From a phage: DNA of 39,720 nucleotides. A program made the position numbers and the translations under genes. The notes under the pieces were generated by a model. That model worked only from the letters and a program-made list of their open reading frames with translations, searched no databases and was not told the DNA's origin. Shown one piece after another: positions 1,005 to 39,720 of the stretch (positions within the stretch are counted from its first letter, which is position 1; each line of letters begins with the position of its first letter). Location of the stretch: the sequence record PZ618370.1. One strand, 5' to 3'.

Positions 1005-1100
1005 GCGACTAACTACAGGGTCTTTGAGTCTACCGCGAGACGGGCTTGACTTGAGCGACTGAAGGCCCTGACTGATAGTCACTACTAACTAACTAACTAA
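1005..1100 (+). promoter_or_regulatory. putative RNase III-type processing element upstream of gene 0.3, ending in the three-frame stop TAACTAACTAACTAA
   Basis: Shares ACTACAGG(G)TC(C)TTTGA and GACTGAAGG(C/G)CCTGACTGAT(A/T)GTCAC blocks with the element at 1936-1985; position matches T7 R0.3. Confidence 0.3.
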
Positions 1101-1919: not shown

Positions 1920-1935
1920 TAGGTTTACGAGTGCC

Positions 1936-1985
1936 AGACTACAGGTCCTTTGACTGAAGGGCCTGACTGATTGTCACTTAACCAC
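1936..1985 (+). promoter_or_regulatory. putative RNase III-type processing element upstream of gene 0.7
   Basis: Second copy of the conserved blocks seen at 1005-1085; position matches T7 R0.5. Confidence 0.3.
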
Positions 1986-2004: not shown

Positions 2005-2739
2005 ATGAACGCACACGATAAAGTAATCATGAACAACCTTATGTCTCAGCTTCACGCTATCATCTGCGAGGAGTGCTACAAGATTGAAGCCTCTTGCGCT
2101 GGCATAGCAGGTCAGCCACGCTGGAGAGCCTTTGAGATACTGGCACGGGAACATGGTTACAAGCTGTTAGGCTTAGGGCATTTCGCTGCCGCCTTTGAGC
2201 ATGAGGACCTTCCGGGATATGCAATCAAGGTGGGCTTTAAGAAGGACGACTCAGGCGCTGCATATGCGGCATTCTGCCGAGAGAATGAGGGAATGGCTGG
2301 ACTTCCAGTCATCCATCTTGTCAAGCGATTTAGCAGGGCGTACATGGTGGCTATGGATAAGTACCGCTCACTGGATGAAATTGGCGGGGACTACTGCCGG
2401 GACGGTGAGACCTATGAACAGCGAGTCTTAAACGTGTCGTGGCGTGTAGTAAACGCGGTGATAGACCACTGCGAGATGCCGTCAACCGCGCTGTATTGGT
2501 GGCTGGATAGTGCGGCCCGCTCTGAGTTCGCTTACTTAGAGGCCCAGTACATTAAAGACCTTGCGCAGACTGCACGTAAGATTCATACGTTCTTCTACGG
2601 TCTGGCATCGTTCGACACGCACCGGGCTAACGTGATGGTAGATAACAGCGGGCGCTTGATAATCACTGACCCAGTGTCTTGGGCTCAGGCAGACCATCAA
2701 GACGAGTTGCAAGGCATACTCAACACAATAGCTGAGTGA
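2005..2739 (+). CDS. 0.7: serine/threonine protein kinase (T7 gp0.7 kinase domain only, 244 aa)
   Basis: KVGFKKDDSGAAY, catalytic-loop-like FDTHRANVMV and ITDPVS match T7 gp0.7 as recalled; about 115 aa shorter than T7 gp0.7, so the C-terminal host-shutoff domain appears absent. Confidence 0.8.
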   Translation: MNAHDKVIMNNLMSQLHAIICEECYKIEASCAGIAGQPRWRAFEILAREHGYKLLGLGHFAAAFEHEDLPGYAIKVGFKKDDSGAAYAAFCRENEGMAGLPVIHLVKRFSRAYMVAMDKYRSLDEIGGDYCRDGETYEQRVLNVSWRVVNAVIDHCEMPSTALYWWLDSAARSEFAYLEAQYIKDLAQTARKIHTFFYGLASFDTHRANVMVDNSGRLIITDPVSWAQADHQDELQGILNTIAE

Positions 2740-2805
2740 TAGACGAGAGGCCACTACATCTAGTGGTCTCAAAGATTATTTCTCACAACATATAGGAGCG
2801 TCGCC

Positions 2806-2967
2806 ATGAAAGCATTGTTAACTTACATCACAATCATCGCACTCTGGGTTACTGCTGTGGCTACCGATGGCAATGCTGGTCACTGGGGCTGGCTGGCGGT
2901 CGACATCATTATGTCGCCTGTAGGAGTGGTGCGCGGCCTGCTGATTCTCTTCGGGCTTGCGGGATGA
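2806..2967 (+). CDS. hypothetical small membrane protein (53 aa, two hydrophobic segments)
   Basis: ATG at 2806 with SD AGGAG 2795-2799; hand-translated MKALLTYITIIALWVTAVATDG...LLILFGLAG; below the 60-aa cutoff of the ORF track. Confidence 0.4.
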   Translation: MKALLTYITIIALWVTAVATDGNAGHWGWLAVDIIMSPVGVVRGLLILFGLAG

Positions 2968-3164
2968 TTATGGGCTGGGCACTTCTGGTCATCGGCTACG
3001 GGTTAATACTCGCAGTCCTCACGAAAGACATCGTGAAAGCACGTAAAGTCTACCGCTTCCAGTATGTATCGCTGGGGCGCTGGACTGTACGTCAACCTAA
3101 CGGACGATTCATGCGCAACCTCGCGAACGTCTGGGATATAGCAACTCTTGGGAGCAAACTGTAA
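2964..3164 (+). CDS. hypothetical small membrane protein (66 aa, N-terminal TM helix)
   Basis: ORF start overlaps the preceding stop (ATGA), end overlaps the next start; hydrophobic N-terminus GWALLVIGYGLILAVL. Confidence 0.4.
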   Translation: MIMGWALLVIGYGLILAVLTKDIVKARKVYRFQYVSLGRWTVRQPNGRFMRNLANVWDIATLGSKL

Positions 3165-3495: not shown

Positions 3496-3518
3496 ACTTA
3501 ACTATCACTATAGGACTC
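3496..3518 (+). promoter_or_regulatory. phage RNAP promoter (ACTTAACTATCACTATA-GGACT), upstream of the RNAP gene
   Basis: 15/17 match to the promoter family consensus; +1 G at 3513; initiating GGA rather than GGGA. Confidence 0.6.
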
Positions 3519-3587
3519 AAGGTCTAAGACTCCAAGTGAAAGACCAAAGAGACTTTAAGTGAAAGACTAATAACAAGGACTTTAAGT
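3519..3587 (+). promoter_or_regulatory. repeat-rich leader of gene 1 (AAGTGAAAGAC x2, GACTTTAAGT x2); possible RNase III/R1-like site
   Basis: Direct repeats at 3534-3544/3557-3567 and 3551-3560/3578-3587; begins with GACTCAAGGTC shared with the RNase III-like family. Confidence 0.3.
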
Positions 3588-6269
3588 ATGAGCGTCATCT
3601 CTATTGACAAACACGACTTCTCTGACGTGTCGAATGCCATTGAGCCATTTAACCTGCTGGCTGACCACTACGGGCAAGACCTTGCAGTCAAGCAGCTTCA
3701 GCTTGAGCATGAGGCATACACTGAAGGCGAGCGACGTTTCATCAAGAACCTTGAGCGCCAGACTGAGCGCGGGGAACTGGCAGACAATCAGGTCGCCAAG
3801 CCTTTGATGCAGACTCTGGTCCCTAAGATTGCGCAAGCCGTCAAGGAGTGGCACGAAGGAAAAGACGGGAAGCTGTCAACCTCTCGCCCAAGCGTAGCGT
3901 TTACCATGCTGAGCACTGATGAGAAGGCTGTCAAAGACCGCTCTCTGCTCATCTCCTGTGGGTCTGCTGCGGTTATCATACTGAAGGTCATCCTCTCCAA
4001 GCTGGTCAAGCCTGAAGGGATACCGATTACACCGATGGCCTCAGCGATAGGCCGCACACTTGAAGATGAAATCCGCTTCGGTCGCATTCGTGACAAGGAG
4101 CGGGAGCACTTCAAGAAGGCGATAGCTGAGAACCTGAACAAGCGAGCCGGGGCATCCTACAAGAAAGCCTACATGCAAGCGGTTGAAACCTCCATGCTGG
4201 AGCAGGGTCAACTGGAAGATGCGTGGGGAAATTGGAGTCCTACCGAGGCGGTACACGTTGGCATCAAGATGCTTGAGATTGTCATCCAGTCTACACAACT
4301 TGTCGAGCTTAAGCGTTATGGTGCTGGCAATGCATCGGCTGACGTTGAGATGGTCCACCTGTCAGACTTCTGGGTAAAGAAGATGGCACAACGTGGATTC
4401 AGCCTCGCGGGTATCGCGCCAGTATATCAACCTTGCGTAGTACCACCTAAGCCGTGGACTGGTGTCGTGGGTGGTGGGTATTGGGCCAAAGGTCGCAGAC
4501 CGTTGCCGCTGATTCGATTAGGGTCTAAGTCTGCGGTGGCACGTTACGAAGACGTGTACATGCCTGAAGTCTACGACGCTGTGAACATCATTCAGAATAC
4601 ACCTTGGAAAGTGAACAAGAAGGTTCTGGACGTGGTGAACATGGTCGAGAAGCTGAACAACACACCTATTAAAGACATCCCGCAAATGGAACCACTGAAG
4701 CCTGAGGACTATGCAGGTGAGACTGAAGAGGAACTCAAGGCATGGAAGAAAGCTGCTGCTGGTATCTATCGTCGCGAGAAGGCCCGAAAGTCACGCAGAT
4801 TGTCACTGAGCTTTATCGTTAACCAAGCGAACAAGTTTTCTCAGTTTAAGGCCATCTGGTTTCCGTACAACATGGATTGGCGAGGTCGCGTCTACGCTGT
4901 ACCGATGTTCAACCCTCAGGGTAACGACATGCAAAAAGGCCTCCTGACTCTTGCGGTCGGCAAGCCTATTGGTTCCGATGGCTTCAAATGGCTGAAGGTA
5001 CACGGTGCAAACTGTGCGGGTGTAGATAAAGTAACCTTCGAGGAGCGCATTAAGTGGGTGGAAGACAACCATGACAACATCATGGCTACCGCTAAAGCAC
5101 CGATGGATAGCATTGAGTGGTGGGGCAAGTTAGGCTCCCCGTTCTGCTTCCTTGCGTTCTGCTTCGAGTATGCTGGCGTAATGCATCACGGATTGTCTTA
5201 CTCATGCTCGCTGCCGATAGCGTTCGATGGGTCATGCTCTGGGATTCAGCACTTCAGCGCGATGCTTCGTGACCACATCGGTGGACATGCAGTAAACCTG
5301 ACGCCTTCCGGTAAGGTCCAAGACATCTACCGCATCGTGTCTGACCGCATTGAGGAGGAACTTAAAGTCCTGCTGGTTAACGGTACGGACAACGAGATGG
5401 TGACTCAAGAGGACAAGAAAACAGGTGAGATTACCGAGCGTCTTAAGCTGGGGACACGAGAGCTTGCGCGCCAGTGGCTTACCTATGGTATGTCACGAGA
5501 GGTCACTAAGCGTTCGGTCATGACTCTGGCATACGGGTCGAAAGAGTATGGATTCGCAGACCAAGTGTACGAGGATATCGTGATGCCAGCGATTGACTCA
5601 GGGTCTGGCGCTATGTTCACCGAGCCAAGCCAAGCATCTCGCTTCATGGCTAAGATGATTTGGGAAGCTGTTAGTGTGACCGTAGTTGCTGCGGTTGATG
5701 CGATGAAGTGGCTTCAAGGTGCTGCCAAGCTGCTGGCTGCTGAAGTGAGTGACAAGAACACAGGCGAAATCCTGAAGCCGTGCCTTCCTGTACATTGGGT
5801 CACACCCGATGGTTTCCCGGTCTGGCAGGAATACCGAAAGAAAGATACCACTCGTCTGAACCTGATGTTCTTAGGGTCATTCAACCTTCAGCCTACCGTC
5901 AACAGAGGCACGAAGAAAGAGTTGGACAAGCACAAGCAGGAGTCAGGCATTAGCCCGAACTTCGTCCACTCACAAGATGGTAGCCACCTCCGCAAGACTG
6001 TAGTCCACACGCACCGCAAGTATGGCGTGATGTCCTTCGCAGTGATTCACGATAGCTTCGGGACCATCCCGGCTGACGCTGAGTATCTGTTCCGTGGCGT
6101 CCGTGAGACGATGGTAGAGACCTACCGCGACAACGATGTGCTGCTTGACTTCTACGAGCAGTTTGAATACCAGCTTCACGAGAGCCAGCGCGACAAGTTG
6201 CCTGAGCTTCCGAAGAAAGGTAAACTGAATATCGAAGACATCTTGTCTTCAGACTTTGCATTTGCTTAA
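3588..6269 (+). CDS. 1: single-subunit DNA-directed RNA polymerase (T7 gp1 family, 893 aa)
   Basis: Full-length collinear similarity to T7 RNAP as recalled (SREVTKRSVMTLAYGSKE, HWVTPDGFPVWQEY, NFVHSQDGSHLRKTVV, IHDSFGTIPADA, C-terminal FAFA). Confidence 0.97.
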   Translation: MSVISIDKHDFSDVSNAIEPFNLLADHYGQDLAVKQLQLEHEAYTEGERRFIKNLERQTERGELADNQVAKPLMQTLVPKIAQAVKEWHEGKDGKLSTSRPSVAFTMLSTDEKAVKDRSLLISCGSAAVIILKVILSKLVKPEGIPITPMASAIGRTLEDEIRFGRIRDKEREHFKKAIAENLNKRAGASYKKAYMQAVETSMLEQGQLEDAWGNWSPTEAVHVGIKMLEIVIQSTQLVELKRYGAGNASADVEMVHLSDFWVKKMAQRGFSLAGIAPVYQPCVVPPKPWTGVVGGGYWAKGRRPLPLIRLGSKSAVARYEDVYMPEVYDAVNIIQNTPWKVNKKVLDVVNMVEKLNNTPIKDIPQMEPLKPEDYAGETEEELKAWKKAAAGIYRREKARKSRRLSLSFIVNQANKFSQFKAIWFPYNMDWRGRVYAVPMFNPQGNDMQKGLLTLAVGKPIGSDGFKWLKVHGANCAGVDKVTFEERIKWVEDNHDNIMATAKAPMDSIEWWGKLGSPFCFLAFCFEYAGVMHHGLSYSCSLPIAFDGSCSGIQHFSAMLRDHIGGHAVNLTPSGKVQDIYRIVSDRIEEELKVLLVNGTDNEMVTQEDKKTGEITERLKLGTRELARQWLTYGMSREVTKRSVMTLAYGSKEYGFADQVYEDIVMPAIDSGSGAMFTEPSQASRFMAKMIWEAVSVTVVAAVDAMKWLQGAAKLLAAEVSDKNTGEILKPCLPVHWVTPDGFPVWQEYRKKDTTRLNLMFLGSFNLQPTVNRGTKKELDKHKQESGISPNFVHSQDGSHLRKTVVHTHRKYGVMSFAVIHDSFGTIPADAEYLFRGVRETMVETYRDNDVLLDFYEQFEYQLHESQRDKLPELPKKGKLNIEDILSSDFAFA

Positions 6270-6560: not shown

Positions 6561-7040
6561 ATGTTTGGTAAGTCAAAACTCAAAGCACAAATCAAAGAGT
6601 TGAGCATGAAGGCGGCATACTTGGAGCGAGTAGTAATAGTCATGGATAAGGACAACGAGAGGCTGAAGGTTAAACTTGCTGAATCAGAGCGTAAGCGCCT
6701 AACACCACCAGCGGCTGTATTTAGCAAGCGTATGGTAGGCATCAAGTTCAAGGCACTGTTCAACGGGATGTACCAACCGACTGAGTTCAAGACTGGACCG
6801 GGTAACTGCGGTAAGAACGTTAAGCACTTCACAACATCGAAGACTGAGCGCACTATTACCATTCACCAGCACCACGTACACGGGTCTCAGAAAGACTTTG
6901 AGTATCGACTGAGCGACATCGACGGTCGAATCCAGTATGACTACGAGCTGGTTAAGGTCTATGGTGAGGAGGCTGAACAGGAACGTATAAACCAAGACTA
7001 CCGCAACAGACAGCGCTTACACCCTAAACTATCACTATAG
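6561..7040 (+). CDS. hypothetical protein (159 aa, N-terminal coiled-coil-like segment, His-rich centre)
   Basis: ORF with SD GAGG; stop codon TAG lies inside the phi1.1 promoter core; no confident homology. Confidence 0.55.
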   Translation: MFGKSKLKAQIKELSMKAAYLERVVIVMDKDNERLKVKLAESERKRLTPPAAVFSKRMVGIKFKALFNGMYQPTEFKTGPGNCGKNVKHFTTSKTERTITIHQHHVHGSQKDFEYRLSDIDGRIQYDYELVKVYGEEAEQERINQDYRNRQRLHPKLSL

Positions 7041-7045
7041 GATTA
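7023..7045 (+). promoter_or_regulatory. phage RNAP promoter (phi1.1-like)
   Basis: CCTAAACTATCACTATA-GGATT; +1 G at 7040. Confidence 0.8.
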
Positions 7046-7087
7046 GACTCAAGGTCATGACTAAAGTCGTGGCCTTCATGATTAACC
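7041..7087 (+). promoter_or_regulatory. RNase III-type processing hairpin (R1.1-like)
   Basis: Conserved element TAGACTCAAGGTCAT...GTGGCCTTCATGATTA; 5' AAGGTCAT can pair with 3' GTGGCCTT (including G-U pairs); same element before genes 5 and 18.5. Confidence 0.5.
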
Positions 7088-7116
7088 CTAACGTAAACTA
7101 CTGGAGATTCAACCAT

Positions 7117-7296
7117 ATGTATCAGAACACTATCAACTTCGAGCGCATCCGTGAACGTCAGAAGACTGAAGGTTATATTCCGAAGGGACGCAAGCTGAAC
7201 AAGACCAAGCGTGGCGGTGGTGTCAAGGGAGCTTTCCGTAATGCTGAGGGTAAAGACTCTCTGGTAAACCAAGAGAAGTATTTCGTAGGAGCGTAA
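7117..7296 (+). CDS. gp1.1-like small basic protein
   Basis: GRKLNKTKR motif as in T7 gp1.1 as recalled. The track ORF starts at 7057 inside the RNase III-like hairpin; the in-frame ATG at 7117 after GGAG is more plausible. Start uncertain. Confidence 0.45.
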   Translation: MYQNTINFERIRERQKTEGYIPKGRKLNKTKRGGGVKGAFRNAEGKDSLVNQEKYFVGA

Positions 7297-7298
7297 AC

Positions 7299-7586
7299 AT
7301 GAGCATGTTCTCAAGAGCGCATAGCGGCAACCTGAACACTCTTCGTACAGCCATCCACAACTGGCAGACCGAGACGGACTACAATGCAGAGGTCAGCACT
7401 TGGTTTGACCAAGTGATGCACAGGACTTGTATCAAAGCTGTAATAGTCCACGTTCACACACGAGAGGTCCTCATTGAGAAGGACTTCACGGAGTACCCGA
7501 ATATCCACGACGAAGATGTGCAGACCGTAGCGGTTGCCACTTGGTTTAACAAACAGTTCAACGACTACACTGGTCGATTCCTTTAA
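7299..7586 (+). CDS. gp1.2-like protein (host dGTPase inhibitor family by position)
   Basis: 95-aa ORF directly upstream of ligase, SD AGGAG; limited recalled similarity to T7 gp1.2 (SGNL, HDEDV). Confidence 0.55.
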   Translation: MSMFSRAHSGNLNTLRTAIHNWQTETDYNAEVSTWFDQVMHRTCIKAVIVHVHTREVLIEKDFTEYPNIHDEDVQTVAVATWFNKQFNDYTGRFL

Positions 7587-7603: not shown

Positions 7604-8689
7604 ATGATAACTATTAAAACTAACCCGCACCGCGCTGTAGATTACTCTGAGTCTGGCGTTAAGAAGGCTCTGGAAGCTGCCGGGTCGCTGGAAGCTGAAG
7701 TGAAGTACGATGGTGTCCGGTTGAATCTTCTGGTCTTCCCTACTGGTGAGACTCAATGGTTGAGTCGTGAGTCTAAACCTCTCCCAGCTCTTGAGTGGCT
7801 GTCAGTCCTTACCAACATCGACAACATCGTTGATGACCAGCAAAAAGCTAGCGACTGGCGGTGGTTCCTTAAGCAGGCGGGCTACGAAGGCATGGGCCTG
7901 ATGATTGATGGTGAGGTCATGGTTCCTGCAACCGACTTCAACACTTCCTCAGGTCTAGTCCGTACCATGTGGTCAGACACTAAGAACTACGCTTGGAATG
8001 GCAACCCAGATGCTGACATCGACACCAAGAAGAAGCATAAGGTCCCTTTCCATCTGGCAACCGACCACATCCGCGTGGTTGTCTACGGTATCGTTGACCT
8101 TAACGTCATCAACGACCCGAAAGCCGAAGGTCCTATCCATAGCGTCACACGCCTGAAGGCCGAAGCTATCGTCCCTCTCCTCCAGAAATACTTCCCGGAA
8201 ATCGACTGGGTTCTGTCTGAGTCACACACGGTCTATGACCTTGAGTCGCTCAACTCCCTGTACGAAGAGAAGCGTCTGGAAGGACACGAGGGTCTGGTAG
8301 TCAAGGACCCACTGGGTAAATACAAGCGTGGCAAGAAGTCAGGAATGTGGAAGATGAAGCCTGAGGAGACCATCGACGGGACCGTATGTGGCCTCGTGTG
8401 GGGGACTCCTGGTAAGGCCAACGAAGGCAAGGTCATTGGCTTTGAGGTACTGCTGGAGGACGGCATGGTAGTGAATGCGTGCGGACTGACTGAGGAGCAG
8501 AAGGATGAGTTCACCGCTTCCGTTCTAAACTGGCGTAAGGGGTTATGCTCAAGCACTATTTATGGAAACCCGTTTGCGGGTAATCAGGTGGAAGTCCTAT
8601 TCATGGAGCGCATCCCTGATGGCTCCCTTCGTCATCCCAGCTTCAAGTGCTGGCGTGGAACGGAAGACAATCCAACCGTTAAGAGCTAA
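7604..8689 (+). CDS. 1.3: ATP-dependent DNA ligase
   Basis: 361 aa; IKTNP N-terminus, adenylation-site KYDGVR, EGHEGLVVKDP, KSGMWKMKPE, DGSLRHPSF all match T7 ligase as recalled. Confidence 0.95.
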   Translation: MITIKTNPHRAVDYSESGVKKALEAAGSLEAEVKYDGVRLNLLVFPTGETQWLSRESKPLPALEWLSVLTNIDNIVDDQQKASDWRWFLKQAGYEGMGLMIDGEVMVPATDFNTSSGLVRTMWSDTKNYAWNGNPDADIDTKKKHKVPFHLATDHIRVVVYGIVDLNVINDPKAEGPIHSVTRLKAEAIVPLLQKYFPEIDWVLSESHTVYDLESLNSLYEEKRLEGHEGLVVKDPLGKYKRGKKSGMWKMKPEETIDGTVCGLVWGTPGKANEGKVIGFEVLLEDGMVVNACGLTEEQKDEFTASVLNWRKGLCSSTIYGNPFAGNQVEVLFMERIPDGSLRHPSFKCWRGTEDNPTVKS

Positions 8690-12164: not shown

Positions 12165-12182
12165 ACTATCACCTTAGGGATG
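12160..12182 (+). promoter_or_regulatory. phage RNAP promoter, divergent (phi4-like)
   Basis: CCTAAACTATCACCTTA-GGGAT; mismatches at -4/-3; +1 G at 12177. Confidence 0.5.
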
Positions 12183-12229
12183 GGACCATGAGTCCTGTCC
12201 CTTTGTTAGCATTTATGATTAAGGAGTGA

Positions 12230-13933
<1,704 letters not shown>

Positions 13934-13944
13934 GGAGGAATACA

Positions 13945-14109
13945 TTGCTAAGAAAACTTAAAGCTCGCTACCATCGGTTCATGTACAAATGGTGGAGCGA
14001 TGAAGCAGCCTGCCTGTCTAACATTCTGGGAGACCAAAGGTTCGACTCTAAGGCATGGAAGAAAGCTAACCGGAAGTTTATGTATCACTTCTTGCGTACA
14101 GACTTCTAG
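13945..14109 (+). CDS. hypothetical small basic protein (gene 4.3/4.5 position)
   Basis: Track ORF 13912-14109 overlaps the gp4 end; an in-frame TTG at 13945 sits 6 nt after AAGGAGG (13932-13938). Start uncertain. Confidence 0.4.
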   Translation: MLRKLKARYHRFMYKWWSDEAACLSNILGDQRFDSKAWKKANRKFMYHFLRTDF

Positions 14110-14156
14110 GTCTAGACTCAAGGTCATTCACATCGAGTGGCCTTTATGATTAGACT
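14109..14156 (+). promoter_or_regulatory. RNase III-type processing hairpin (R4.7-like) before gene 5
   Basis: TAGACTCAAGGTCATTCACATCGAGTGGCCTTTATGATTAGAC: second copy of the conserved element. Confidence 0.5.
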
Positions 14157-14173
14157 AAAGCGGAGGATTAACC

Positions 14174-16345
14174 ATGTTTGACCTTAAGAGTATCTGGGGT
14201 TCTGACATCGAGACCAACGGTCTCCTTGATACAGTCTCCCAGTTCCACTGTGGGGTCCTGATTAACGCCGAGTCGAATGAGACCCTTAAGTACGGGGTAG
14301 CTCCGATGGTCGGTATCGTCGGTGGCTTCAAAGAGTATGTTCATAAAGTGGAAGAGATTGCCGCATCACCTGATGGTATGCTTGTCTTCCATAACGGTAT
14401 CAACTATGACGTCCCGGCTATAGACAAGCTGAAGCGTCTGTACTTTGGGAAACGTTTTAACTTCCCGAAACACAAGATGATTGATACCTTGGTGCTGGGC
14501 CGCTTGATGTATCCAAACATTAAGTTCTCAGACATAGGCGCGGTGAAAGCTGGTCGTCTGTCACCTAATATGATGGGACGTCAGTCTCTTGAGGCTTGGG
14601 GTTATCGTCTCGGTGAGATGAAAGGTGAGTACAAACACGATTACGTTGCCAAGTGCAAGGCTGAAGGTATCGAATATAAGGCCGGGGACGAATGGCTGTT
14701 CCCGTCTCAGGAGATGCTGGACTATAACGTTCAAGACGTTGTGGTCACACTGGCGTTGTTCAAGAAGTTCCTGACTGACAAGTATTACTTCCAGTCTGAA
14801 CAGTTCGCTTTCGACCAGATTTATGCGTTGCGTCTGGAACATGATGCTGCGTGGACCTGTGCGAAGATGGAACGTAACGGCTATCCGATGAACACCGAGA
14901 TGGTCGAAGGCTTATATCGTGAACTCACCGTCAAACGTGCAGAGCTGCTGGACAAGCTGCGTTCGACTTTCGGTAGCTGGTACGCACCAAAGGGAGGCAA
15001 GGAGTTCTTCAAGCACCCCCGGACAGGCAAGGACCTTCCGAAGTATCCGAGAGTCGTGTATCCTAAGGTAGGGTCAGTATTCAAGAAGCCGAAGAACAAA
15101 GCTCAACGCTTAGGTCTGGAGCCTTGCGAGTTCGACTCACGAGACATGATGGAGGGAGCACCGTTCACACCTATCACTTACGTTGAGTTCAATCCGGGGA
15201 GCGGAGACCACTTAGCGAAAGTCTTGATGGAGCGTGGCTGGGAGCCTGTAGACTTCACTGACACCGGGAAACCTGTAGTCGATGACGAGACGTTAGAACA
15301 CGTTAAGCTACCAGACGCAGAGGCTCAGGCTTGCGTAGAGCTAGTTCGTGAGTATCTGGAAGTCCACAAGCGCATCGGTCAGGCGGATGAAGGTAAGAAC
15401 GCATGGTTGAAACTTGTAGGTACAGACGGACGTATGCACGGTTCAATCAACCCATGCGGGGCAGTAACCGGACGTGCGACTCACAGTTCACCAAACATGG
15501 CTCAGGTCCCTGCTAACGGTGCTCCGTATGGTGAGATTTGCCGTGGAGCTTTCGGTGCAGCTTGGAACAAGACTAACGGTGAGCCAGACCCTTGGATTCA
15601 GGTTGGTGTGGATGCTTCAGGTCTTGAGCTGCGCTGTCTGGGGAACAGAGCGGCTCCGTTTGATGGTGGAGACTATGCGAAGACTGTGGTCGAAGGTGAC
15701 ATCCACTGGGCCAACGCAGTAAACGCTGGGTTAGCACCTAACGTCCCACGCGATAAGTCTAACCATGACCATGATGCTTTCCGTAACAACGCTAAGACGT
15801 TCATCTATGCGTTCCTGTATGGTGCAGGGGCCGCTAAGATTGGACTGATAGTTGGCGGTGGTAAGAAGGAAGGTGCTGCCCTGATGAAGAAATTCATTGA
15901 GGGTACACCAGCTATCAAGGATCTGCGAGAGGCTGTGCAGAACACGCTCATCTCAGAGTCCAAATGGGTAGACGGTGAGAACATAGTGAAGTGGAAACGT
16001 CGATGGCTGAAAGGTCTGGACGGTCGCCGCATTCACATCCGGTCGCCACACTCAGCACTTAACGCTCTACTTCAGGGTGATGGTGCGGTTGTCTGTAAGC
16101 ACTGGATTGTCGAGACCGAGCGTATGCTCGAAGAGGCAGGGTATGTCCACGGCTGGGAAGGAGACTTCGCGTACATGGCTTGGGTTCACGATGAGCTACA
16201 GATTGCGTGTCGTACTCAGGAGATTGCCGAAGAAGTCGTCAAGATTGCTCAACTTGCTATGCGTAAGGTGGGTGAGTTCTATAACTTTAAATGTGTCCTT
16301 GATACCGAAGGTAAGATTGGACCAACGTGGAAGGAGTGTCACTAA
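14174..16345 (+). CDS. 5: DNA polymerase (gp5, family A with 3'-5' exonuclease)
   Basis: 723 aa; VFHNG.NYDVPA, DTLVL.RL, EAWGYRLGEMKGEY, DYNVQDVVVT, RATHS.PN.AQ, DASGLELRCL, NAKTFIY.FLYGAG, YMAWVHDE match T7 gp5 as recalled. Confidence 0.96.
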   Translation: MFDLKSIWGSDIETNGLLDTVSQFHCGVLINAESNETLKYGVAPMVGIVGGFKEYVHKVEEIAASPDGMLVFHNGINYDVPAIDKLKRLYFGKRFNFPKHKMIDTLVLGRLMYPNIKFSDIGAVKAGRLSPNMMGRQSLEAWGYRLGEMKGEYKHDYVAKCKAEGIEYKAGDEWLFPSQEMLDYNVQDVVVTLALFKKFLTDKYYFQSEQFAFDQIYALRLEHDAAWTCAKMERNGYPMNTEMVEGLYRELTVKRAELLDKLRSTFGSWYAPKGGKEFFKHPRTGKDLPKYPRVVYPKVGSVFKKPKNKAQRLGLEPCEFDSRDMMEGAPFTPITYVEFNPGSGDHLAKVLMERGWEPVDFTDTGKPVVDDETLEHVKLPDAEAQACVELVREYLEVHKRIGQADEGKNAWLKLVGTDGRMHGSINPCGAVTGRATHSSPNMAQVPANGAPYGEICRGAFGAAWNKTNGEPDPWIQVGVDASGLELRCLGNRAAPFDGGDYAKTVVEGDIHWANAVNAGLAPNVPRDKSNHDHDAFRNNAKTFIYAFLYGAGAAKIGLIVGGGKKEGAALMKKFIEGTPAIKDLREAVQNTLISESKWVDGENIVKWKRRWLKGLDGRRIHIRSPHSALNALLQGDGAVVCKHWIVETERMLEEAGYVHGWEGDFAYMAWVHDELQIACRTQEIAEEVVKIAQLAMRKVGEFYNFKCVLDTEGKIGPTWKECH

Positions 16346-22112: not shown

Positions 22113-22135
22113 ACTAAACTATCACTATAGGGAGA
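22113..22135 (+). promoter_or_regulatory. phage RNAP promoter, strongest consensus copy (phi10-like, class III)
   Basis: ACTAAACTATCACTATA-GGGAGACC; +1 to +6 GGGAGA identical to the T7 class III initiating sequence. Confidence 0.9.
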
Positions 22136-22237
22136 CCAAGAGACAGACTCAAGGTTTCCCTATTACTTCAGTCCATACGGATTGGGCATACAGTAAGTAA
22201 TAAACTTTATCTTTCAATTGAATAGGAGAATTATCAT

Positions 22238-26636: not shown

Positions 26637-26643
26637 CTTATTG

Positions 26644-26693
26644 AAGGGCCTATAGATTTACCTTAACTATCACTATAGGGACTATAGGCCCTT
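26644..26693 (+). repeat. 12-bp perfect inverted repeat AAGGGCCTATAG / CTATAGGCCCTT bracketing the phi13 promoter
   Basis: Reverse complement checked by hand; arms 26644-26655 and 26682-26693; position matches T7 RNase III site R13. Confidence 0.7.
26661..26683 (+). promoter_or_regulatory. phage RNAP promoter (phi13-like)
   Basis: CCTTAACTATCACTATA-GGGAC; +1 G at 26678. Confidence 0.85.
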
Positions 26694-36308: not shown

Positions 36309-36503
36309 ATGATTGAGTTAGACTTCAAGAATGAGGTCCTTAAAGCCTCTCCTATCGTCGGGACCGCTGCGGCTGATGGTGCCAGTCGGTTCTTCTTCGG
36401 GCTCACACTTAACGAATGGTTCTACGTTGCAGCTATCGCGTACACCGTTGTCCAGATTGGTGTGCTAGTCTATAAAACGATTAAAGGAGGTGGTAAAACA
36501 TGA
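36309..36503 (+). CDS. 17.5: class II holin (gp17.5)
   Basis: LDF.NE..KA.PIVGT..AD...R.FFGL.LNEWFYVAAIAYTVVQIG match T7 gp17.5 as recalled. Confidence 0.88.
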   Translation: MIELDFKNEVLKASPIVGTAAADGASRFFFGLTLNEWFYVAAIAYTVVQIGVLVYKTIKGGGKT

Positions 36504-36763
36504 CGCAGATGGACTTAGAGAAGTTCCTCTTAATGCTGGATACTGAACGGGCTCGACTCATGCTGCAAGACCTGCGGGATGACTCTAAGCGTTCACCTCA
36601 GCTCTACAACGCCATTGAGAAGCTGCTTGCTCGTCATAACTTTGTGTTAAGCAAGGTGTCTGTTGACGAGAAGACGCTGGCTGATATGGAGGCCCTGAAC
36701 GCAGAGTACGATAAGGTGCTTTCAGCGACTGAGGATAATGACACAGGGTATGGCGTTCAATAA
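36500..36763 (+). CDS. 18: terminase small subunit (gp18)
   Basis: 87 aa (T7 89 aa), start overlaps the holin stop (ATGA), immediately upstream of the R18.5-like element. Confidence 0.8.
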   Translation: MTQMDLEKFLLMLDTERARLMLQDLRDDSKRSPQLYNAIEKLLARHNFVLSKVSVDEKTLADMEALNAEYDKVLSATEDNDTGYGVQ

Positions 36764-36814
36764 GTGTTAGACTCAAGGTCATTACTATATGTAGTGGCCT
36801 TTATGGTTAACACT
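36764..36814 (+). promoter_or_regulatory. RNase III-type processing hairpin (R18.5-like)
   Basis: GTTAGACTCAAGGTCATTACTATATGTAGTGGCCTTTATGGTTAAC: third copy of the conserved element. Confidence 0.5.
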
Positions 36815-36864
36815 AACTAGTGGAGGCGACTCTACGTGAAATCTGATAAACCGGGAGGGCAACT

Positions 36865-37314
36865 ATGCTCGAATTTTTAAAGAGAGCGGCTCCGTGGTTA
36901 CTTGCAGCAGTGATGTTTGCTGGTGGCTACCACACCGCTAACAATAAGTGGGAGGCTAAGGTCAATGCAGAATACACCTCGAATCTTAAGGCATCGGAAG
37001 ATACAAGGCTTGCTGTCCAAGCTGAAGTCAACAAAGTGTCCAAACGGTTTCAGGACGAAATGTCCTCGTTGGAAGGCAGCACTGATAGGATTATTGCTGA
37101 CCTTCAGTCTGACAATAAGCGGGTGCGCGTCCGAGTCAAACCAACGAGCGGAACCACGCAAAGTGACGGTCGATGCATCATTGATGGTTACGCCGAACTT
37201 GACGAACGAGATGCTAAACGTCTTATCGCCATCGGAGTGAAAGGAGACAAGTGGATTAAGGCCCTTCAGGACACTGTGAGAGCCTTGCAGCAAGATAAGG
37301 AGGTGACGCATTGA
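36865..37314 (+). CDS. 18.5: i-spanin (Rz-like, gp18.5)
   Basis: 149 aa; N-terminal TM segment [12 protein letters not shown], followed by a charged helical region; embedded o-spanin gene in the +1 frame. Confidence 0.8.
36965..37240 (+). CDS. 18.7: o-spanin (Rz1-like lipoprotein, gp18.7) embedded in gene 18.5
   Basis: [25 protein letters not shown]: signal sequence with lipobox ISG-C; C-terminal SLMV.PNLT.EMLNV matches T7 gp18.7 as recalled. Track ORF starts at TTG 36917; ATG 36965 chosen. Start uncertain. Confidence 0.7.
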   Translation: MQNTPRILRHRKIQGLLSKLKSTKCPNGFRTKCPRWKAALIGLLLTFSLTISGCASESNQRAEPRKVTVDASLMVTPNLTNEMLNVLSPSE

Positions 37315-39563: not shown

Positions 39564-39604
39564 TAAGGTCAGTACGTGGATAAAGACTCACTCTACTGAC
39601 CTTA
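39564..39604 (+). repeat. palindromic hairpin element at the inner boundary of the right terminal repeat (11-bp arms TAAGGTCAGTA / TACTGACCTTA, 19-nt spacer)
   Basis: Same arms as 86-126, but the spacer is the reverse complement of the left-end spacer. Confidence 0.8.
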
Positions 39605-39720
39605 GCTACTGTAGTCAAGGACTTTAGGTAACACCATTCAGGCTAACCTATGGTCTACCTACTGATTGGTTCACTGGTCGTCATCCGATGGTCTCAGACC
39701 TACGGTCCTTGACCTACAGT
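39594..39720 (+). repeat. right copy of direct terminal repeat
   Basis: Identical to 116-242; runs to the last base of the window. Confidence 0.8.

Follow-up and report, generated by a model that had tools for sequence, protein, structure and literature searches.

The element at 7037-7091 of the window (the whole 39,720-base stretch of DNA that was analysed) has a 159-aa open reading frame (ORF) as its 5' neighbour. It is followed by a 59-aa ORF at the gene 1.1 position, by the gene for gp1.2 (dGTPase inhibitor) and by an ORF in the ligase (gene 1.3) position. The element overlaps a phage promoter at 7028-7040, for which +1 would be G7040 by T7 convention, so that transcripts from this promoter would begin with the hairpin and keep seven of its eight lower-stem positions. 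A listed 79-aa ORF begins further 5', at ATG 7057 within the hairpin, and extends the 59-aa ORF in frame; since the PHROG match takes in the 59-aa ORF from residue 1 at the 7117 start, 7117 is the likely start and the 7057 extension is probably spurious. The second copy of the element lies directly 5' of gene 5, encoding DNA polymerase (14174-16345), and the third begins at the stop codon (36761-36763) of the small terminase gene 18, upstream of the Rz-like spanin gene 18.5 (36865-37314). The original prediction had placed these elements before genes 1.1, 5 and 18.5, and the genes found downstream (the gene-1.1-position ORF with gp1.2, DNA polymerase, and gp18.5) bore this out.

The window is a complete T7-like genome in which every long ORF lies on the + strand, and is more specifically a complete Kayfunavirus (K1F-like) genome. 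Its nearest public relatives are Kayfunavirus phages of E. coli, Salmonella and related hosts, with identity of up to about 95%. The promoter consensus is identical to that of K1F (NC_007456), the type Kayfunavirus (CTAAACTATCACTATAGG), with 9 exact core matches and 2 variants located at the K1F junctions. A perfect phage promoter is present at 3501-3513 (K1F 2479-2491), about 75 nt 5' of the phage RNA polymerase gene (3588-6269), which implies positive feedback on gene 1; at the equivalent place the T7 record lists an E. coli promoter (C) alone. Bases 116-242 are identical to the final 127 bases (39594-39720) and form the direct terminal repeat. A 100% inverted copy of 116-211 stands at bases 1-96, with a predicted hairpin of -80.7 kcal/mol, and a fold-back assembly artefact at the genome end, not biology, probably accounts for the first ~115 bases.

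To locate the element, both strands of the window were scanned with the pattern TAGACTCAAGGTCAT-N(8-14)-GTGGCCTTYATGRTTA. The scan gave exactly three matches, all on the + strand, at 7044-7084, 14113-14152 and 36768-36809, where the chance expectation was 0 and 100 dinucleotide-preserving shuffles gave no match. The 3' block GTGGCCTTYATGRTTA by itself had no further good match in the window. With their flanks, the whole hairpins are ~55 nt long and occupy 7037-7091, 14106-14159 and 36761-36816. The exact scan thus showed that the three-copy element proposed earlier is real, and the limits first given for it (7041-7087, 14109-14156 and 36764-36814) roughly correspond to the hairpins including their lower stems. 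The spacer had been described as 10-11 nt; the middle between the two blocks is 10, 9 and 11 nt in copies 1, 2 and 3, respectively, so that the description fits copies 1 and 3 but not copy 2.

Folding of each copy, which had been put forward as a check, predicted one common stem-loop in all three, consisting of a lower stem, an asymmetric internal loop, an upper stem and a small terminal loop of 4-5 nt. The lower stems are 7-8 bp long and differ in sequence from copy to copy (AGGAUUAG/UUAACCCU, GGUCUAG/UUAGACU and AGUGUUAG/UUAACACU). The internal loop is 4/5 nt, with ACUC on the 5' side and YAUGR on the 3' side. The upper stem is 10-11 bp long and opens with 8 conserved bp, AAGGUCAU/GUGGCCUU, two of which are U-G; the pairing of these blocks with G-U pairs was anticipated, and we found it as A-U, A-U, G-C, G-C, U-G, C-G, A-U and U-G. 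The distal upper stem adds a further 2-3 bp inside the seemingly variable middle, complementary within each copy (GAC/GUC, UC/GA and UAC/GUA). Since the distal and lower stems differ between copies yet still pair, the paralogues by themselves already show compensatory variation.

In the R1.1-equivalent hairpin (copy 1, 7037..7091, + strand; covariance model score 62.8 bits, E = 1.6e-13), the lower stem pairs 7039-7046 with 7082-7089 with one A.C mismatch, the internal loop is formed by 7047-7050 (ACUC) and 7077-7081 (CAUGA), and the upper stem pairs 7051-7061 with 7066-7076 (11 bp, two U-G) below the loop UAAA at 7062-7065. The R4.7-equivalent hairpin (copy 2, 14106..14159, + strand; 63.4 bits, E = 1.2e-13) has its lower stem at 14109-14115/14150-14156, its internal loop at 14116-14119/14145-14149, its upper stem at 14120-14129/14135-14144 (10 bp) and its loop at 14130-14134. 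For the R18.5-equivalent hairpin (copy 3, 36761..36816, + strand; 65.1 bits, E = 4.3e-14; fold z = -4.9) the corresponding positions are 36763-36770/36807-36814 for the lower stem, 36771-36774/36802-36806 for the internal loop, 36775-36785/36791-36801 for the upper stem (11 bp) and 36786-36790 for the loop.

The predicted fold energies of the three hairpins were -19.4, -19.4 and -23.4 kcal/mol on the + strand, compared with -16.8, -10.0 and -12.5 kcal/mol on the minus strand at the same coordinates. The + strand folds better because of the conserved G-U pairs, which points to an RNA made from the transcribed strand. As intergenic hairpins, the elements could in principle make the host or phage RNA polymerase terminate or pause, a reading that we regard as extremely improbable: direct reading showed a U-run 3' of none of the three hairpins, a terminator scan of 6900-7300 found none, and the stems are broken by the 4/5-nt internal loop and are merely moderate in G+C. 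With no uninterrupted G+C-rich stem followed by a U-run, intrinsic termination was rejected.

We aligned the three copies with T7 R0.3, R0.5, R1.1, R1.3, R4.7 and R18.5 and with the T3 sites. The window copies resembled T7 R0.5 and R1.1 as closely as the T7 sites resemble one another. The core of T7 R0.5, R1.1, R4.7 and R18.5 is nearly identical to that of the window copies, strand and gene junctions also agree, and the sequence shared by this T7 group, ACUCAAGGUC...GUGGCCUUYAUGAUU, is present in the window copies as well. R1.1 RNA is the substrate of the Nicholson laboratory, and copy 2 and T7 R1.1 have identical ACTCAAGGTCATTC and GAGTGGCCTTTATGATT, that is, 14 + 17 consecutive nucleotides. 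Across the internal loop and the adjoining 8 bp copy 2 is identical to T7 R1.1, and copies 1 and 3 differ from it by 1-2 nt. Sequence differs from the T7 sites in the loop, in the lower stem and in the distal part of the upper stem, with complementarity kept. Two differences in context were observed: copy 1 lies right after a single K1F-type promoter whereas T7 R1.1 lies between phi1.1A and phi1.1B, and in the window, unlike T7, no gene 4.7 intervenes between the site and gene 5.

No RNase III site features are annotated in the T7 RefSeq and K1F RefSeq records. The T3 record (AJ318471) carries ten stem-loops annotated as 'RNase III recognition site', and T3 R0.3, R0.5, R1.1, R1.3, R4.7 and R18.5 show the same motif and fold as the window copies. 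The T3 arrangement is also that of the window, with R1.1 overlapping the 3' end of phi1.1, R4.7 directly before gene 5 and R18.5 overlapping the end of gene 18.

To measure covariation, we assembled a 15-sequence alignment of 3 window, 6 T7 and 6 T3 sites with a two-helix structure. In this alignment 93.3% of cells were paired, compared with 30-51% when the 3' partners were slid by 1-3 columns, and 9 pairs had changes on both sides. A covariance model built from the alignment gave the window sites scores of 62.8-65.1 bits (E about 1e-13) for all three, and recovered R6.5 and R1 of T7 and T3, which had been held out of training. All five model matches in the window were on the + strand, and the minus strand of the window gave no match below E = 5. 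The model also found five sites in K1F. Three of the five are at the junctions shared with the window (5566-5621, 12853-12906 and 36446-36501), and two are in the early region, before gene 0.3 and around 1766-1820.

A larger set was then collected. An exact-pattern scan of IMG/VR returned 120 stretches, on contigs mostly of about 40 kb, i.e. T7-like phages, and model matches from the IMG/VR contigs together with the window came to 150, of which 96 were distinct. Among these 96 sequences 95.4% of cells were paired, compared with 27-48% in the slid controls, and compensatory changes were found in all 8 lower-stem pairs and in 4 distal upper-stem pairs (12); none of 500 shuffles reached the observed covariation values. 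The invariance of AAGG/CCUU in this set is partly ascertainment, as the collecting pattern contained AAGG/CCUU; the lower and distal stems were left free by the pattern. Orthologues in related contigs kept the core and had the distal stem swapped for another complementary sequence (e.g. AUGAC/GUCGU to GCUG/CAGU). A search of the whole window against Rfam at gathering thresholds gave no match to any curated covariance model; the T7 R sites appear to have no Rfam representation, and hence we do not count this result against the assignment. A literature search for RNase III sites in K1F or Kayfunavirus found nothing relevant. The equation of the three elements with T7 R1.1, R4.7 and R18.5, made in the original prediction, holds on the near base-for-base alignment, the annotated T3 sites, synteny and the covariance model.

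On these sequence comparisons, the three elements are very probably T7-family RNase III mRNA-processing hairpins, acting in cis as signals in polycistronic mRNAs, and as such are a textbook, already known feature of the T7-group phages. Their sequence, fold, covariation, strand and synteny were seen directly, as was their homology to experimentally cleaved T7 sites. The cleavage coordinates that we take to be those of Dunn & Studier 1983, read on T7 NC_001604, fall after YAU of YAUG(A/G), presumably at the same motif position in five T7 sites (R0.3, R0.5, R1.1, R4.7 and R18.5). At these coordinates T7 R0.5, R1.1, R4.7 and R18.5 read (A/C)CTCAAGG(T/C)C...GTGG(C/T)CTTYAT↓G(A/G)(A/T)T, where the arrow marks the cut. 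From homology and these assumed coordinates, cuts are predicted after U7079 (/G7080), U14147 (/G14148) and U36804 (/G36805).

We infer from the same comparisons that the sites are cleaved in this phage, at these exact bonds and with effects on mRNA stability and translation. Host RNase III would bind the roughly two-turn quasi-continuous helix made up of the lower stem, the asymmetric internal loop and the upper stem, and would make a single cut on the 3' side of the internal loop at CCUUYAU↓G; the position of the target site within this loop would limit the cut to one strand. The upstream RNA would then end in the upper stem-loop and be shielded from 3'-to-5' exonucleases. The downstream RNAs (genes 1.1-1.3; gene 5 onward; gene 18.5 onward) would gain a 5' end about 25-60 nt before the ribosome-binding site and would start with GAUUA or GGUUA. 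T7 R1.1 RNA receives a single phosphodiester cut (PMC4858673). Internal loops restrict cleavage to one strand, leaving protective 3' hairpins (PMC1540722; PMC3867540). For good reactivity, at least 11 bp of helix must separate the cut from the loop (PMC1540722; PMC3867540). Counted from the predicted scissile bond to the terminal loop, the window hairpins have 3 internal-loop positions plus 10-11 bp, giving 13-14 helix positions, and T7 R1.1 has 13; all three window hairpins therefore reach the required length of at least 11 positions (PMC1540722).

The same hairpins might act uncut: between cistrons they could block 3' exonucleases, in leaders they could serve as 5' structures, or they could bind RNase III and escape cleavage. 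Stable folds conserved only on the + strand would suit such a role, R1.1 variants that bind RNase III yet resist cleavage are known (PMC1540722), and transcripts from the 7028-7040 promoter have the copy 1 hairpin at their extreme 5' end. We nevertheless consider uncut elements unlikely, since the loop and 8 bp that govern reactivity are identical (copy 2) or within 1-2 nt of those of the efficiently cleaved T7 R1.1, and since it is sequence and not just pairing that is conserved in AAGGUC/GGCCUU and YAUGAUU, as a recognition site for an enzyme predicts. T7 has ten RNase cleavage sites, often beside or paired with promoters (PMC6938266). It is able to grow in RNase III-deficient hosts (PMC6938266), so the contribution of the sites to fitness may be small.

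The two remaining model matches in the window are diverged hairpins of the R1.1-type family on the + strand. The hairpin at 1928..1980 (26.2 bits, E = 3.8e-4; -20.3 kcal/mol, z = -3.6) resembles T7 R1 (ACAGGUCC...GGGCCUGACUGAUU), and its orthologues in three related contigs show compensatory changes in the distal upper stem. The hairpin at 2733..2785 (26.2 bits, E = 3.8e-4; -21.1 kcal/mol, z = -4.0) reads GAGAGGCCACUA-CAUC-UAGUGGUCUC with a lower stem and overlaps the stop codon of the kinase gene; no orthologue of it was found among the related-contig loci compared. Both are true, diverged relatives of the main sites and bracket the gp0.7 kinase gene.

This gene (2005..2739, + strand) encodes a gp0.7-like protein kinase of 244 aa (phrog_15752, E = 5e-109). 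The T7 record places the gene at 2021-3100, for a gp0.7 of 359 aa, and the window protein appears to be a kinase-only version. The T7 gp0.7 kinase phosphorylates RNase III and raises its kcat about five-fold (PMC4858673), which makes the gp0.7-like kinase a functional partner of the sites. No kinase gene annotation was found in K1F and phiHAO2-2. The K1F annotation shows no gp0.7 kinase gene in the stretch from gene 0.6 to gene 1, and K1F is without the two hairpins that flank the kinase gene in the window.

Compared with the ten sites annotated in T3, the model thus gave five canonical sites in the window, and canonical R6.5 and R1.3 were not found there. Three further candidates on the + strand were seen outside the model. 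The site at 12176..12205 has a different architecture, with an 11-bp hairpin (AGGGAUGGGAC / GUCCUGUCCCU), made up of what is transcribed first from the promoter before gene 4, followed by UUGUUAGCAUU; by its alignment with T7 R3.8 and the annotated T3 R3.8 it is a probable R3.8-type site. At 26643..26693 a 12-bp stem (AAGGGCCUAUAG / CUAUAGGCCCUU) encloses the gene 13 phage promoter in its loop. The fold has an architecture like that of annotated T3 R6.5 and R13 and was missed by the covariance model, and we list it as a weak, possible R6.5/R13-type site. Before gene 0.3, folding and direct reading of 1006..1087 gave a hairpin with an enlarged upper part and a 3' half, CGACUGAAGGCCCUGACUGAUAGUCAC, that nearly repeats the one at 1928-1980. 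It was missed by the model in the window, although K1F has a model match at the equivalent place, and it is possibly, at a weak grade, an R0.3-type site.

The sequence GACTCAAGGT occurs eight times in the window. Besides the three hairpins, it is found on the + strand at 3514 and 22146 and on the minus strand at 8247, 19838 and 21819, the minus-strand copies, absent from the original prediction, lying inside genes. Partial copies of the element had been reported at 3514 and 22145; the sequence is indeed there, at 3514 and at 22146 (not 22145), but neither copy is an RNase III site of R1.1 type. Both were rejected as such, with the 3' half absent and neither place among the model matches up to E = 10. 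The copy at 3514 was also rejected as a hairpin, as 3500-3590 folds no better than shuffles (z = -1.3); it falls at +2 of the RNA started at the promoter before gene 1. The copy at 22146 lies within the loop and 3' arm of a homologue of the gene 10 leader 5' stem-loop. In T7 this stem-loop reads GGGAGACC-ACAAC-GGTTTCCC, and its counterpart at 22130-22160 of the window, immediately behind the promoter before gene 10, reads GGGAGACC-N15-GGTTTCCC. In this window region (22118-22165) the loop is 15 nt, with GACTCAA, compared with 5 nt in T7, and in K1F it is longer still. Both partial copies are explained as instances of a genome-wide word, GACTNNAGGT, to which GACTCAAGGT belongs and of which the 5' hairpin arm GACUCAAGGU is one instance.

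The word GACTNNAGGT is strand-symmetric and has 29 copies in the window (14 on the + strand and 15 on the minus strand), compared with about 1.2 expected from base composition. The + strand copies are at 142, 725, 1937, 3514, 7046, 7164, 13087, 14115, 21421, 22146, 36770, 37554, 38345 and 39620. Of all 65,536 gapped 4+2+4 words it is the most frequent in the window, exceeding those of the promoters. K1F likewise has it in first place, with 26 copies, and there are 28 copies in phiHAO2-2, 4 in T7 and 3 in T3; genome-wide over-representation was seen in phages of Kayfunavirus type alone. Enrichment is confined to spacing 2, with 29 copies compared with 0-7 at other spacings. Eleven copies are intergenic, in roughly 9% of the genome, and 18 are in coding sequence, where synonymous-codon shuffling left 2.9 (maximum 9). 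The looser form GACTNNNNG occurs 118 and 106 times in coding sequence in its two orientations, compared with 52 and 42 after shuffling, an excess of about 11 sd. Chance and codon usage were therefore rejected as the source of the extra GACTCAAGGT copies, the excess being spacing-specific and above the synonymous-codon shuffles. Among the related contigs compared, the density of the word tracks the K1F-type promoter. In K1F and phiHAO2-2 the strict-word positions were 92-100% identical and the flanks 91-98%, a comparison of low power between genomes that are 93% identical. A literature search for the over-represented word found nothing relevant.

The fit of the 5' half of the element to this strongly over-represented, strand-symmetric word, together with the T3 primary origin annotated near R1.1, raises the question of whether the elements are DNA-level signals, either as carriers of GACTNNAGGT or as belonging to a replication origin close to the promoter of gene 1.1, with the RNA fold incidental. 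All five model matches lie on the transcribed strand, the conserved U-G pairs would be C.A mismatches on the opposite strand, and the compensatory changes keep RNA pairing. T7 and T3 have the element too, without enrichment of the genome-wide word, and three dispersed intergenic positions misfit a single origin. Such a DNA-level explanation of the hairpins is very unlikely, and RNA processing by RNase III remains the preferred reading.

Words of related form are present at the left end of the genome. Four tandem copies of a 15-nt repeat, AACCATAGGTCCTAC, lie at 499-573, with related short repeats at 206-242, 407-460 and 589-611, and these non-coding left-end repeats are built from GAC../..GGTC-type words. 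Beside the terminal repeat, GACTNNAGGT is itself arrayed with a 15-nt period; Kayfunavirus-type contigs have such arrays, of ACCTNNAGTC, at the place corresponding to that of the T7 array. In T7, ACCTAAAGTC/CCTAAAG is clustered at the genome ends, with 16 of 22 + strand copies within 1-340 or 39671-39837, and these CCTAAAG arrays flanking the T7 terminal repeats would be the counterpart of the left-end repeats. Unlike in T7 and T3, the word in the window, K1F and phiHAO2-2 is also scattered through coding sequence on both strands, where synonymous codon choice maintains it. We tentatively suggest, while holding it doubtful, that GACTNNAGGT marks a DNA-level signal across the genome, for binding, priming or packaging and related to the CCTAAAG arrays of the T7 ends. 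If this were true, the hairpins and the 'partial copies' would be built on, or constrained by, a second code. The word is the sole item here that might lead somewhere new.

The assignment leaves knowledge of RNase III and of T7-like gene expression unchanged, and its value is mainly one of annotation: five canonical RNase III sites, with up to three of non-canonical type, can be marked on a Kayfunavirus genome, where the public relatives K1F and phiHAO2-2 carry no annotated RNase III site features. It predicts exact mRNA ends, and shows near base-for-base conservation of the T7 processing signal between genera of the Studiervirinae, which is useful for reading phage transcriptomes and for engineering K1F-type phages.
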